Positions 35,501 through 36,071 of a stretch of 64,000 nt of DNA are shown in pieces. Within the stretch, counting starts at the first letter, position 1. Each line of letters opens with the position of its first letter. The position numbers and the translations under genes are program-made. The notes beneath the pieces are model-generated. The model was not told the DNA's origin, made no database searches, and saw only the letters and a program-made list of their open reading frames with translations. This DNA is from Mongoliibacter sp. (GTDB lineage: Bacteria > Bacteroidota > Bacteroidia > Cytophagales > Cyclobacteriaceae), in assembly GCF_007692705.1 (NCBI RefSeq), contig NZ_REBN01000124.1:37712-101711 (forward strand). The letters are read 5' to 3'.

Positions 35501-35657
35501 ATAGAAGCGAGAGACGAGAAGAATTAAACGATATGATATATGCTTTGCGATATAAAATAGATATAAGCCTTCGGCGATATTTTGGTCACGTTTTCAATTA
35601 ATAAAGCGAAATGGAAAAAGTGTCAACCATTTTCAGGACGAGACAAATCAATAGGTC

Positions 35658-35687
35658 AAAAAAAGGACCTGCATTTCTGCAAGTCTT
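35658..35687 (-). terminator. Duplicated Rho-independent terminator after the downstream chimeric tRNA copy
   Basis: Copy of 35792-35821 with a single A/G difference at the stem base. Confidence 0.7.
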
Positions 35688-35695
35688 ATGAATTG

Positions 35696-35783
35696 TGGAG
35701 GATAACGCCTGCCGGCGAGGCAGGGAGTCGAACCGATGACCTTCCCGACCTGCGTCGGGACGCTCTAGCCAGCTGAGCTAATC
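35696..35783 (-). pseudogene. Chimeric tRNA-Ala copy: 5' acceptor strand lost, anticodon arm replaced, palindrome inserted in the T-stem
   Basis: Identical to the intact tRNA except for TCCCGAC-N4-GTCGGGA (35743-35760) in place of the 17-nt anticodon arm and a 17-nt CCTGCC-N5-GGCAGG insert (35708-35724). Confidence 0.85.
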
Positions 35784-35791
35784 AATAGGTC

Positions 35792-35821
35792 AAAAAAAAG
35801 ACCTGCATTTCTGCAAGTCTT
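35792..35821 (-). terminator. Rho-independent terminator of tRNA-Ala
   Basis: Minus strand AAGACtTGCA-GAAA-TGCAgGTCTT followed by a T-run; includes a G-U pair and a GNRA loop. Confidence 0.85.
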
Positions 35822-35829
35822 ATGAATTG

Positions 35830-35903
35830 TGGAGGATAACGGAGTCGAACCGATGACCTCTACACTGCCAGTGTAGCGCTCTAGCCAGCTGAGCTAATCC
35901 CCC
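35830..35903 (-). tRNA. tRNA-Ala (anticodon GGC)
   Basis: GGGGGAT/ATCCTCC acceptor with G3:U70, D-arm GCTC/GAGC, anticodon arm CTACA-CTGGCAG-TGTAG and TTCGA T-loop. One U-U mismatch in the T-stem; CCA not encoded. Confidence 0.95.
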
Positions 35904-35954
35904 AGTATTTTATAATTGAATGGAGCAAATCTCCAAAACTGTTAATTCTTTTTA

Positions 35955-36029
35955 GGAGTCGGAGCGCTTACCTTCCCGACCTATGTCGGGACGCTCTAGC
36001 AATCCCGATGGTTATCGGGACAATCCCCC
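35955..36029 (-). pseudogene. Older chimeric tRNA-Ala copy: D-arm and anticodon arm replaced by TCCCGA-N6-TCGGGA palindromes, 3' acceptor strand lost
   Basis: Minus strand reads GGGGGATT-[GTCCCGATAACCATCGGGATT]-GCTAGAGCG-[TCCCGACATAGGTCGGGA]-AGGT-AAGCGCTCCGACTCC. Confidence 0.8.
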
Positions 36030-36040
36030 AATTGGGATTG

Positions 36041-36071
36041 CAAATATAGAAAGGGATTCTATTTGGACAAA
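36041..36071 (-). promoter_or_regulatory. Bacteroidota housekeeping promoter for the tRNA locus
   Basis: TTTG-N19-TATATTTG on the minus strand, 11 nt before the upstream chimeric copy. Confidence 0.75.

Follow-up and report, generated by a model that had tools for sequence, protein, structure and literature searches.

SegB of the phages T4 and T6 is a free-standing GIY-YIG homing endonuclease encoded among tRNA genes (PMC2330249; PMC13096335), and its cleavage within these genes leads to a recombination-dependent amplification of the tRNA together with segB (PMC13096335). The Bacteroidota loci described here resemble this system in that a GIY-YIG gene lies among tRNA genes, that the association spans many isotypes, and that segments of tRNA plus nuclease gene are amplified in tandem. 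However, SegB is encoded by phages and has a DNA-binding part, whereas the Bacteroidota genes are chromosomal and encode 78-107 aa that comprise the catalytic domain only, and a search of viral contigs revealed no hairpin in a matching context. In addition, the phage amplicons carry full tRNA genes, whereas the Bacteroidota copies are partial, with the anticodon arm replaced by a hairpin.

SLX1 cleaves branched and stem-loop DNA, which would fit a hairpin or a cruciform as partner structure of a related enzyme. SLX1 requires SLX4, however, and has a zinc finger that is lacking from the GIY proteins of Bacteroidota. By sequence profile, the UPF0213/YhbQ/YazA proteins and SLX1 are the closest relatives of the latter (PDB 1zg2, 1ywl and 7cq2, with E-values of 2e-13, 1e-10 and 4e-8, respectively), and Slx1, YhbQ and YazA have been described as a single family (PMC7017083). 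In the literature searched, we found neither a paper that assigns a function to the UPF0213/YhbQ family nor a link of the UPF0213/YhbQ/YazA/SLX1 family to tRNA genes or hairpin-swapped pseudo-tRNAs.

Integrative elements that target tRNA genes and are bounded by attL and attR share with our loci that the inserted gene adjoins a tRNA left intact and that a partial tRNA displaced to the far side has kept the original trailer (as at locus L025). In contrast to them, the Bacteroidota loci have no integrase and carry a single small ORF as cargo. Their duplicated segment extends from the D loop to the 3' end or from the 5' end to the T arm, and the displaced copy always has a swapped anticodon arm, with tandem arrays on both sides. 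For Nostoc, Elhai and co-workers reportedly described in 2008 tiny hairpin repeats (SDR4-6) that replace native hairpins, RNA genes included, with the structure kept; these repeats differ from the present case in phylum and sequence, are dispersed over the genome and are not known to be tied to partial tRNAs or a nuclease gene. REPs, lastly, are short GC-rich extragenic palindromes with a GTAG/CGTC tag that have been proposed to be moved in trans (PMC3116915, PMC3733652). The hairpins of Bacteroidota are likewise GC-rich palindromes with conserved stems and variable loops, but REPs are dispersed in hundreds of copies whereas the former are confined to tRNA-derived sequence; they have no conserved tag (CGTC appears only if tRNA position 26 is G), and the associated gene is of the GIY-YIG type and not an HUH gene as in RAYT. 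Hairpin-swapped partial tRNA copies or tRNA-linked UPF0213 genes of Bacteroidota were not found described in the literature searched.

The tRNA-Ala locus of Mongoliibacter sp.

The window, i.e. the whole stretch of 64 kb of DNA that was analysed, stems from Mongoliibacter sp., a soda-lake member of the Cyclobacteriaceae (Bacteroidota). Since RecR and the flanking genes are those of Cyclobacteriaceae, a cyanobacterial origin, as in the HIP1/SDR idea, is ruled out. The single tRNA of the window is a tRNA-Ala(GGC) (35829..35903, minus strand) that was called by ARAGORN and by Rfam (RF00005, 61.3 bits); it has the G3:U70 pair and no encoded CCA, and its sequence is invariant among the related genomes in alignment A2. 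Along the minus strand, on which all features given below are located, the order is promoter, 5' partial copy of the tRNA gene, intact gene, terminator, 3' partial copy and terminator.

The promoter of this tRNA operon (36041..36071) was read directly as TTTG (36071-36068), a 19-nt spacer and TATATTTG (36048-36041). An earlier note on this DNA, made from the letters alone, had placed a consensus promoter 11 nt ahead of the upstream copy; the position holds, but a sigma-70-type promoter scan scores 9/12 and the Bacteroidota type (TTTG, 19 nt, TATATTTG) fits equally well. The promoter element is unchanged in all seven sequences of alignment A2 and is present in L128-L131 too. In Arthrospiribacter, the intact tRNA itself begins 12 nt past the promoter, a layout that we take as the probably ancestral arrangement.

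The upstream (U-type) copy (35955..36029) comprises tRNA positions 1 to ~62 and reads, from 36029 to 35955, GGGGGATT-G-TCCCGATAACCATCGGGA-TT-GCTAGAGCG-TCCCGACATAGGTCGGGA-AGGTAAGCGCTCCGACTCC. It starts 11 nt downstream of TATATTTG, carries two hairpin swaps, is altered in four of 19 T-arm bases and has no 3' acceptor strand. The first hairpin, TCCCGAT-AACC-ATCGGGA (36003..36020; -9.1 kcal/mol), replaces part of the D arm; its Mongoliibacter ortholog is degenerate (TTCCGATATTCATCGTAA), and D-loop hairpins of a like kind occur in L038, L064, L128 and L160. The second, TCCCGAC-ATAG-GTCGGGA (35974..35991; -11.3 kcal/mol), takes the place of the anticodon arm between flanking sequences that match the cognate tRNA in its D stem and variable loop. 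The interval between this copy and the tRNA contains a further hairpin, TGGAG-N5-CTCCA (35921..35935), with a stem that is invariant across three genera and a loop that is variable (alignment A2).

Behind the intact gene and its intrinsic terminator (35790..35821; hairpin plus T8) lies the downstream (D-type) copy (35696..35783), which reads GATTAGCTCAGCTGGCTAGAGCG-TCCCGACGCAGGTCGGGA-AGGTCATCGGTTCGACTCC-[CTGCCTCGCCGGCAGGC]-GTTATCCTCCA from 35783 to 35696 and comprises tRNA positions 5-76. Its anticodon arm is replaced by TCCCGAC-GCAG-GTCGGGA (35743..35760; -12.3 kcal/mol), the loop of which, GCAG, is identical to nt 35-38 of CTGGCAG, the native anticodon loop. Apart from this swap the copy had been regarded as identical to the gene, which it is not: it lacks the 5' GGGG, and a 17-nt insert, CTGCCTCGCCGGCAGGC (35707..35723), sits in the 3' strand of the T stem, where it forms the hairpin CCTGCC-TCGCC-GGCAGG (-10.2 kcal/mol) between GACTCC and GTTATCC. 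A similar CCTGCC..GGCAGG hairpin is present in L115. A second copy of the terminator (35659..35685) follows, and the tRNA 3' end, trailer and terminator together form a direct repeat of 62 nt that is 98% identical (35646-35707 vs 35780-35841).

In both copies, the 17-nt anticodon arm is thus exchanged for an 18-nt perfect hairpin at tRNA positions 26|27 and 43|44. The swap with its junctions GAGCG| and |AGGT, the additional palindrome in the D arm of the upstream copy together with its four T-arm changes and its missing acceptor strand, and the own terminator of the downstream copy are all as the earlier note had described them. The swapped hairpins (7-bp stem, 4-nt loop) run into AGGT... without a T run and are therefore not intrinsic terminators. 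The palindrome is also more frequent than by chance, as TCCCGA-N6-TCGGGA occurs three times in the window, each time at the tRNA-Ala locus, against 0.00 expected from 100 shuffles; further TCCCG..CGGGA modules are absent from the rest of the 64 kb.

ARAGORN calls the intact gene alone at this locus and neither of the chimeras. The downstream copy reaches 13.6 bits to RF00005, for which the gathering score is 29 bits, the upstream copy is unmatched, and no Rfam family was found for the chimeras at gathering or E-value thresholds. An acceptor stem (1-7 / 66-72) is impossible, as the upstream copy stops past the T loop and the downstream copy begins at position 5, and both have lost the native arm with its 5-bp stem and 7-nt loop. 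The chimeras in the window represent disabled, partial duplications of the gene for tRNA-Ala(GGC), of which the 5' one has retained the gene's original promoter. A tRNA with an 8-nt loop for quadruplet decoding, which was considered as well, is ruled out by the absent U33, the unconserved loops and the missing acceptor stem.

Hairpin-swapped tRNA copies in other genomes

A scan of 185,579 species genomes for the pattern AGCR-TCCCGAC-N4-GTCGGGA, which is conditioned on the exact stem, returned at least 119 loci, many of them from metagenome bins with uncertain labels. Among the matches listed, a conservative rule classes as tRNA-like at least 58 of the 77 loci that bear the label Bacteroidota, Balneolaceae or Melioribacteraceae, and 38 of the 42 loci from other phyla resemble chance matches. 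In at least 67 chimeras, the left flank matches the adjacent cognate tRNA in 8-10 of 10 bases and the right flank in 6-8 of 8, and the swapped copies among the matches listed span 15 isoacceptors and several orders. The same two junctions hence recur, in agreement with the recurrent site-specific swap that had been proposed, and an enzyme acting in trans is a plausible cause. Viral contigs yielded five matches to the same pattern, none of them tRNA-like, which argues against a phage origin.

In 854 kb of hairpin-selected loci, extra copies of the hairpin are likewise linked to tRNAs, and among the partial copies beside 142 intact tRNAs a single one retains the native anticodon arm; in this copy, it is the D arm that bears the hairpin. 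Arrays of 6-10 units are found at L014, L025, L026 and L128; at L025, it is the last 3' copy that retains the original trailer, and the inner units bear a cassette-specific one. ARAGORN miscalls some of the hairpin copies, e.g. as 'tRNA-Stop(tta)' in L177 and 'tRNA-Thr(agt)' in L078.

The hairpin follows the consensus TCCCG-NN-loop-NN-CGGGA with a conserved outer stem (TCCCG/CGGGA) and inner pairs that covary (AC/GT, AT/AT, AA/TT, CA/TG, TTCCG/CGGAA). In 5' copies anchored by recR, changed sites amount to 6/140 in the hairpin stems vs 37/190 in the adjacent remnant of the T arm. The loops share 12 exact 4-mers with the cognate anticodon loop, where 2.8 are expected, and are otherwise unconserved.

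It could be argued that such structures are pseudogenes of drifted tandem duplications, in which the hairpin reflects coincidence or local gene conversion, or that they are assembly artefacts. Tandem duplication and conversion are indeed evident from the 62-nt repeat, repeats of this kind do break assemblies (a Logan unitig ends within the tRNA) and the Mongoliibacter array contains a run of N. However, identical stems and junctions in this range of isoacceptors and orders as well as the palindrome count in the window already contradict this explanation, as do independent Logan unitigs of a soda-lake run, which tile the entire structure with zero differences, and the ten such units in the complete genome of Belliella baltica. 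We therefore consider it very improbable. The swap represents a class of tRNA-gene rearrangement that is spread through Bacteroidota and their relatives, and the window is one instance of it.

The recR-tRNA-Ala locus in relatives and the age of the copies

RecR of the window is 92% identical to that of Mongoliibacter ruber and 87% to that of Indibacter alkaliphilus, and both species have kept the synteny recR-[tRNA cluster]-hemN; a search for proteins identical to HemN of the window gave no match. The comparison of this locus among strains, which the earlier note had suggested, revealed partial copies of the same kinds in five related genera, and the same architecture is found in isolate genomes. 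Orthologs of the U-type copy exist in Mongoliibacter (L002), Indibacter (L006), Fontibacter (L130) and Belliella (L128). Behind the tRNA, a stand-alone GIY-YIG gene of 83-84 aa (UPF0213/SLX1 type) is present in three genera, namely Indibacter, Arthrospiribacter and Fontibacter. In Indibacter, a single 5' copy precedes the tRNA, which is followed by two units of GIY ORF plus 3' copy and by one further 3' copy; in Arthrospiribacter, there is no 5' copy, and two ORF-less 3' copies are succeeded by a GIY ORF plus truncated 3' copy; Fontibacter has one 5' copy, the tRNA and one GIY ORF; Belliella has ten 5' copies in tandem, the tRNA and a truncated 3' copy; and in Cecembia a decayed 5' copy is all that is present. 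Over seven genera, the locus thus varies from zero to two GIY ORFs and from 0 to 10 partial copies.

With regard to age, the earlier assumption of one old and one recent copy does not agree with this comparison, as both copies are old. The 5' junction of the downstream copy is common to D2 of Arthrospiribacter, its T-stem insert occupies a site that is identical in D3 of Indibacter and in the last Mongoliibacter copy, and in Indibacter and Arthrospiribacter the equivalent of this copy directly follows the GIY-YIG ORF. The likeness of the downstream copy to the gene is better explained by conversion than by recent origin, and that gene conversion acts on the copies, one of the earlier proposals, is evident from the 62-nt repeat and from the comparison of copies among genera.

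No GIY-YIG gene was found in the 64-kb window by tblastn (best E = 0.07). Since such an ORF is present at the orthologous locus, we regard the window as a probable relic and not as an active member, and what would connect it to the nuclease is this orthology. The ORF-less units of Arthrospiribacter and of the window are not simple deletions of ORF-bearing ones.

The position of the 5' copy between a conserved promoter and the tRNA means that it is probably transcribed, and one could imagine that the chimeras are functional RNAs, namely tRNA-like decoys for anticodon nucleases that have no anticodon, 5' or 3' structures for the stabilisation or processing of the tRNA precursor and of the nuclease mRNA, or guides that would pair by means of their own unpaired acceptor strand. 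The covariation of the inner stem pairs, the better preservation of the stems relative to the neighbouring T-arm remnant and the resemblance of the loops to the cognate anticodon loop would be in line with this, as would the acceptor pairing kept in a few 5' units (L042, L062, L082, L105) and the location of the hairpin at GIY ORFs, where it lies 4-30 nt past the stop codon of many and in the 5' leader at L207, i.e. like an mRNA protector. However, most copies, both of those in the window included, are unable to form the acceptor stem, their scores lie under every Rfam threshold and their loops are otherwise unconserved. In L007 and L008, strains with 99% RecR identity, the decay of the upstream hairpin was not compensated, and the same holds for Cecembia; the copy is missing from Arthrospiribacter, and copy number ranges from 0 to 10 at a single orthologous locus. 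In the RNA runs for the window and for Indibacter, it was tRNA words alone that matched (6-9%), and the chimeras were uncovered. As such, a role as RNA appears improbable to us, and the tRNA mimics or decoys put forward earlier fit neither the missing acceptor stems nor the decay of the upstream hairpin.

GIY-YIG genes at tRNA loci and a putative selfish cassette

The GIY gene usually lies between the terminator of the intact tRNA gene and the 3' copy and encodes a stand-alone protein of 78-107 aa. The proteins match Pfam PF01541 (E = 6e-17), and the catalytic residues of the GIY-YIG fold are conserved, with Y5, Y16, G18, R26, H30 and E63 invariant in all 22 proteins of relatives; their nearest solved structures are UPF0213 BH0048 (E = 2e-13) and SLX1 (E = 4e-8). 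They consist of the catalytic domain alone and have no sequence-reading DNA-binding domain. A comparison with defence systems gave weak matches to the shared motif only, and one with PHROGs weak matches to homing endonucleases.

The association with the hairpin is strong in both directions. In the 854 kb of hairpin-selected loci, 27 of 28 GIY ORFs lie within 250 nt of a hairpin. The reverse test used 80 metagenome loci picked by GIY protein similarity alone, with a profile built from 6 sequences; a same-strand tRNA ends at most 200 nt upstream in 38 of the 66 evaluable loci, further loci have a tRNA just downstream, and the exact hairpin is present in 26 of the 80. There are also mismatches, as some GIY ORFs have no 3' copy (L017, L022, L055, L130) and some hairpin copies no nearby ORF (the window and L128 of Belliella). 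Together with the ORF-less units that are not deletion products, these suggest that the swap may predate the ORF or be independent of it.

From our point of view, the locus in the window is probably the ORF-less relic of a selfish nuclease cassette associated with tRNA genes, and the mechanism could be as follows. The nuclease gene would reside at tRNA genes, which may offer a niche because of their conserved homology and strong promoter. Breaks at the tRNA gene or close to it would be repaired by recombination among tRNA repeats, and this repair would lead to partial duplications and arrays, as in the experiments with the phage GIY-YIG enzyme SegB. The redundant copy would always bear the hairpin, and the swap, by deleting the anticodon arm, would interrupt the homology to the functional gene. 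Being an extrudable palindrome with conserved base pairs proximal to the junction, the hairpin would be the likeliest structure for an SLX1-like, structure-selective nuclease to bind, cut or spare. Two other routes to the copies were rejected: a transposon with terminal inverted repeats that duplicates a 4-bp target at the anticodon, since the junctions have no native stem halves, and ends-in integration of a hairpin-cut donor as the main route, since both copies would regain the native arm through gap repair.

Several observations stand against this cassette. The proteins have no DNA-binding domain of the kind found in known homing endonucleases; an intact, presumably cleavable tRNA persists beside the nuclease, which classical homing leaves unexplained; the hairpin has decayed uncompensated in L007, L008 and Cecembia; and the likeness of the loops to the anticodon loop is predicted by none of its steps.

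The ORF-free hairpin copies, in the window and in L128, and the ORF-less units that are not simple deletion products could also be explained if the hairpin were an autonomous tiny mobile palindrome that enters or replaces stem-loops already present, with the GIY-YIG genes as sharers of its niche and not as its cause. It would resemble the small dispersed repeats of cyanobacteria or REPs, move by another enzyme or by template switching during replication, and be visible in redundant copies alone if, as this explanation presumes, an insertion into the functional tRNA gene is lethal. In agreement with it, the same module replaces segments of the D loop and T loop, where a single pseudo-tRNA may have two or three modules (the window, L038, L039, L128, L137), and is found within the terminator hairpins of a few loci (L032, L065, L086); at L137, the local terminator has the same hairpin core. 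However, the module is nearly confined to tRNA-like sequence in the window and the 854 kb and shows no REP-like dispersal, the one partial copy with a native arm beside 142 tRNAs would require near-saturating insertion, and the two-way association with the GIY ORF is strong. Among the loci inspected, we saw none with a gene of the HUH or RAYT type. We consequently regard a mobile palindrome as unlikely; for the REP/RAYT origin that had been suggested before, both the confinement of the hairpins to tRNA-like sequence and the nature of the co-occurring enzyme gene, a GIY-YIG nuclease and not an HUH transposase, speak against it.

One could further speculate, and we do so tentatively, that the TCCCG...CGGGA hairpin is the working partner of phylum-wide minimal SLX1-like GIY-YIG nucleases that parasitise tRNA genes and recognise tRNA-gene DNA by its shape. 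The target would be a cruciform, or a cloverleaf on a displaced strand, the hairpin would be the cis site or an immunity patch of the nuclease, and the whole would form a structure-guided system, mobile or rearranging, by which the arms of copied tRNA genes are rewritten. Recognition by shape would account for the precise exchange of arms at their structural borders in 15 isoacceptors. Since the hairpin loops keep part of the cognate anticodon, such a system may also have a side at the RNA level.

Taken alone, the window is a relic with no obvious role. If the proposed selfish nuclease cassette is true, however, many genomes of Bacteroidota would hold, at their tRNA genes, selfish elements of a class that has hitherto gone unremarked, formed by the smallest GIY-YIG nuclease genes and flanked by hairpin-swapped partial tRNA copies. 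This would account for the tandem arrays of pseudo-tRNA units that break assemblies, and the odd anticodons that ARAGORN assigns to some hairpin copies are a source of errors in tRNA annotation. It would also provide a concrete biological setting for the UPF0213/YhbQ family, i.e. for the relatives that SLX1, a subunit of a eukaryotic resolvase, has in bacteria. As the exchange coincides with the structural borders of the arm irrespective of sequence, these loci could finally serve as a test system for the recognition of a gene by a nuclease through the fold of the gene's product.

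Structure and authenticity of the window locus

On the minus strand of the window, recR (36740-36081) is followed by a promoter in which 19 nt separate TTTG (36071-36068) from TATATTTG (36048-36041). Next come an upstream partial tRNA copy (36029-35955) and, behind a spacer of 51 nt, the intact tRNA-Ala(GGC) gene (35903-35829; ARAGORN and Rfam, 61.3 bits) with its terminator, then a downstream partial copy (35783-35696) and hemN (35411-34050). This tRNA is the only one that ARAGORN and Rfam call in the 64 kb. As the earlier note had read, the 17-nt anticodon arm CTACACTGGCAGTGTAG is swapped between GAGCG and AGGT for an 18-nt hairpin in both copies, namely TCCCGAC-ATAG-GTCGGGA in the upstream and TCCCGAC-GCAG-GTCGGGA in the downstream copy (loops at 35978-35987 and 35747-35756). 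The third palindrome, TCCCGAT-AACC-ATCGGGA, replacing part of the upstream copy's D arm, was likewise confirmed, and a second terminator copy indeed lies between the downstream copy and hemN; a 62-nt direct repeat (98% identical) spans the tRNA 3' end, trailer and terminator. The downstream copy is, however, not otherwise identical to the gene as had been stated, since it begins at tRNA position 5, and thus lacks GGGG, and carries a 17-nt insert (35723-35707), itself a hairpin (CCTGCC-TCGCC-GGCAGG), within the T-stem 3' strand. The 64 kb contain three instances of TCCCGA-N6-TCGGGA, each of them at this locus (shuffles expect 0.00), and no related hairpin modules were found elsewhere in the window.

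The spacer between upstream copy and tRNA contains a small hairpin, TGGAG-N5-CTCCA (35921-35935), whose stem is invariant and whose loop is variable in three genera (the window and the aligned positions in Mongoliibacter ruber, L002, and Indibacter, L006), and whose 3' arm is similar to CCTCCA at the 3' end of the tRNA. The annotated recR reading frame of 219 aa extends over the end of clpS (36712-36740); since RecR of the relatives has 206 aa, the true start probably lies 13 codons downstream.

The locus is not an assembly artefact. Independently assembled Logan unitigs from a soda-lake run tile all of it with zero differences, and related strains are present in two further runs. One Logan sequence (L001) stops inside the tRNA (end at 1142), where two paths diverge; as a real repeat makes a de Bruijn graph contig end at such a divergence, this is expected behaviour. 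In the M. ruber assembly, a run of N (L002 10939-11835) lies exactly within the downstream-copy array. Partial-copy arrays break short-read assemblies, and copy numbers from draft genomes are therefore lower bounds.

The orthologous locus in related genomes

RecR is 92% identical to that of M. ruber and 87% to that of Indibacter alkaliphilus, which places the organism in the Cyclobacteriaceae (Bacteroidota), and the order recR-[tRNA cluster]-hemN is conserved in both. In the comparison of orthologous loci suggested in the earlier note, partial copies occur in all six related genomes compared. The locus is strikingly variable, and the region downstream of the recR-linked tRNA is an insertion hotspot. 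M. ruber has one copy of the upstream (5') type and, after the tRNA, several of the downstream (3') type with an N run there; I. alkaliphilus has one 5' copy and, after the tRNA, twice an 83-aa GIY-YIG ORF with a 3' copy, then another 3' copy. Arthrospiribacter ruber has no 5' copy (promoter to tRNA start, 12 nt), and its tRNA is followed by two ORF-less 3' copies and then by a GIY ORF whose 3' copy is truncated. Fontibacter flavus combines one 5' copy with a GIY ORF lacking a 3' copy, the complete genome of Belliella baltica ten 5' copies in 78-nt units with a truncated 3' copy lacking an ORF, and Cecembia rubra has one decayed 5' copy and nothing after the tRNA. Throughout a seven-sequence alignment of the locus, promoter and intact tRNA are invariant.

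The downstream copy, taken in the earlier note to be recent, is old, because its 5' junction (CCTATT followed by GATTAGCTC) is common to Arthrospiribacter and its T-stem insert site to Indibacter and Mongoliibacter. Its near identity to the gene is better attributed to conversion than to recent origin. As side observations, IS elements (rve, DDE transposases) replace hemN after the tRNA cluster in Belliella (L128 4681-6621), and Fontibacter has a gene with a PycTM domain (a Pycsar-type defence effector) close by (L130 5326-5895).

Distribution and the associated GIY-YIG gene

The pattern AGCR-TCCCGAC-N4-GTCGGGA, which requires a single exact stem, was searched for in one genome per species and gave at least 119 loci, many of them metagenome bins with uncertain labels. 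Among the matches listed, about 38 in other phyla resemble what chance would produce at this pattern length, and the hairpin lies within tRNA-like sequence in nearly all loci of Bacteroidota, Balneolaceae and Melioribacteraceae; none of five matches in viral contigs is tRNA-like. On the test for enrichment inside tRNA-like sequence proposed in the earlier note, all three window motifs and almost all of 35 further hairpins of this kind in 854 kb of scanned loci lie in tRNA-derived sequence. At least 67 chimeras adjoin their cognate tRNA, with 8-10 of 10 bases to the left and 6-8 of 8 to the right matching its anticodon-arm flanks, and at least 15 isoacceptors are affected (Val-tac 12, Ala-ggc 11, Lys-ctt 9, Arg-acg 8 and Met 7 being commonest among the matches listed). 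Recurrent 5' copies, composed of acceptor 5' strand, D arm, hairpin and partial T arm, sit between promoter and gene, frequently in arrays of 6-10 units; recurrent 3' copies, composed of hairpin, T arm and 3' acceptor strand, lie behind the gene. Around 142 intact tRNAs, a single neighbouring partial copy retains the native anticodon arm, with the hairpin in its D arm.

Hairpin-swapped copies, some with GIY-YIG ORFs, also occur in bins labelled as other phyla (L023 Chloroflexota, L076 Minisyncoccota with a GIY ORF, L016 Melioribacteraceae, L039 'Bifidobacteriaceae', L090 'Gammaproteobacteria'), reflecting either horizontal spread or mis-binned Bacteroidota contigs. In four alphaproteobacterial bins (L018, L030, L060, L127) the hairpin core lies in a conserved stretch of ~90 nt that is not tRNA-like (..GGGACAAGCCC..CAGCATCCCGACC..GTCGGGACATTA..CCCGTTCAC..) and may be an unrelated structured RNA. 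Three near-identical repeat copies with AGCATCCCGACAAATGTCGGGACAGC, on separate contigs of one Thermodesulfovibrionales bin (L071, L084, L110), are an unrelated family. Where the hairpin loop has 5-6 nt, some hairpin copies are called by ARAGORN as tRNAs that have unusual anticodons or long introns (L078 tRNA-Thr(agt) 272-346, L105 tRNA-Lys(ttt) 2156-2230, L177 tRNA-Stop(tta), L053 477-572, L083 838-929); in Bacteroidota genomes such calls are probably misannotations.

Among the matches listed, the hairpin-selected loci hold 30 GIY-YIG ORFs of 78-107 aa, and 27 of the 28 that come from the genome scan have a hairpin no more than 250 nt away; the window itself has no GIY-YIG gene. The common layout is intact tRNA, terminator, ORF, 3' copy and terminator, with up to three repeats; in locus L025 the last 3' copy retains the original trailer and the inner units have a cassette-specific one. 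In a second layout (L038, L207) the ORF lies between 5' copy and intact gene. The GIY-YIG ORFs often terminate at a TAG drawn from conserved tRNA nucleotides, either the D loop (GG-TAG-AGC) or U8-A9-G10 (L006 11140-11151; L025 ~1715-1725; L038 ~1745-1760; L051 ~1785-1795). The C-terminal tails run through the hairpin in differing frames (..EHPD, ..RASRP) and are therefore probably unconstrained. In the reverse test on 80 metagenome loci selected by protein similarity alone, a same-strand tRNA ends within 200 nt upstream in 38 of 66 evaluable loci, additional loci have a tRNA immediately downstream, and 26 of the 80 contain the exact hairpin. The proteins match PF01541, retain the catalytic Tyr, Tyr, Gly, Arg, His and Glu, and have UPF0213 BH0048 and EF2693, then SLX1, as nearest solved relatives; no second domain was found in them. 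A review groups Slx1, YhbQ and YazA as one family (PMC7017083). The REP/RAYT system with a HUH-type enzyme, given as an example in the earlier note, does not fit, because the hairpins show no dispersal in the 64 kb and the 854 kb and the gene that accompanies them encodes a GIY-YIG and not a HUH enzyme.

Nature of the hairpin and possible origin of the copies

In the protein-selected loci, which are unbiased with respect to hairpin sequence, 30 of 46 anticodon-arm substitutes read TCCCG-NN-loop-NN-CGGGA and 6 are compensated variants (e.g. TTCCG/CGGAA, CTCCG/CGGAG); the remainder include other GC-rich palindromes, such as TGGCGCC-loop-GGCGCCA in tRNA-Ala(tgc) partial copies by a GIY-YIG ORF (L200, metagenome contig Ga0154020_10024196). 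What the substitutes share seems to be a stable hairpin fold and not one fixed sequence. Conservation of the five outer pairs together with covariation of the inner ones shows that pairing matters. In recR-anchored 5' copies, changes affect 6 of 140 hairpin-stem sites versus 37 of 190 in the T-arm remnant, the lineages being non-independent, yet in two strains whose RecR is 99% identical the stems have decayed, with no compensatory changes. Unexpectedly, the 4-nt loop equals a 4-mer of the cognate anticodon loop, mostly nt 34-37, in 12 cases versus 2.8 expected (L009-L127 and the window, among the matches listed), or 7 versus 1.9 after collapsing duplicates. The window loop GCAG corresponds to native nt 35-38, and in L183 the hairpin interior AATGGAATT is still similar to native CATGGCATG. 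It is possible that this likeness arose by conversion from the neighbouring gene, followed by palindrome restoration.

From our point of view, the nuclease gene is probably a selfish cassette for which tRNA genes would provide homology and transcription, with breaks and recombination between tRNA repeats producing partial copies and arrays. An analogue for such an origin is the phage enzyme SegB, whose cuts within tRNA genes drive recombination-dependent amplification (PMC13096335). The hairpin might be a structure recognised or spared by the SLX1-like enzyme. This role is the weakest point of the model, against which it counts that the nuclease gene has a persisting intact tRNA gene as its neighbour, that some ORFs lack a hairpin copy and vice versa, and that simple deletion from ORF-bearing units does not account for the ORF-less ones. 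The occurrence of several hairpins per pseudo-tRNA and of a few within terminators would suit an autonomous mini-palindrome that targets stem-loops, which we regard as less likely. Less likely still is a functional RNA role for the chimeras, given that neither window copy can form an acceptor stem, that neither has an Rfam match, that copy number ranges from 0 to 10 at a single locus and that no transcripts of the chimeras turned up in RNA runs for the window and Indibacter.

Hairpin-swapped tRNA copies with GIY-YIG genes were not found described in a full-text literature search of incomplete coverage, and we know of no precedent for redundant tRNA copies that have each had one arm exactly replaced by a standard hairpin. 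A nuclease cassette at tRNA genes is of a kind already known. Overall, the chimeras of the window are old, disabled partial duplicates and belong to a widespread class that is tied to small GIY-YIG genes.
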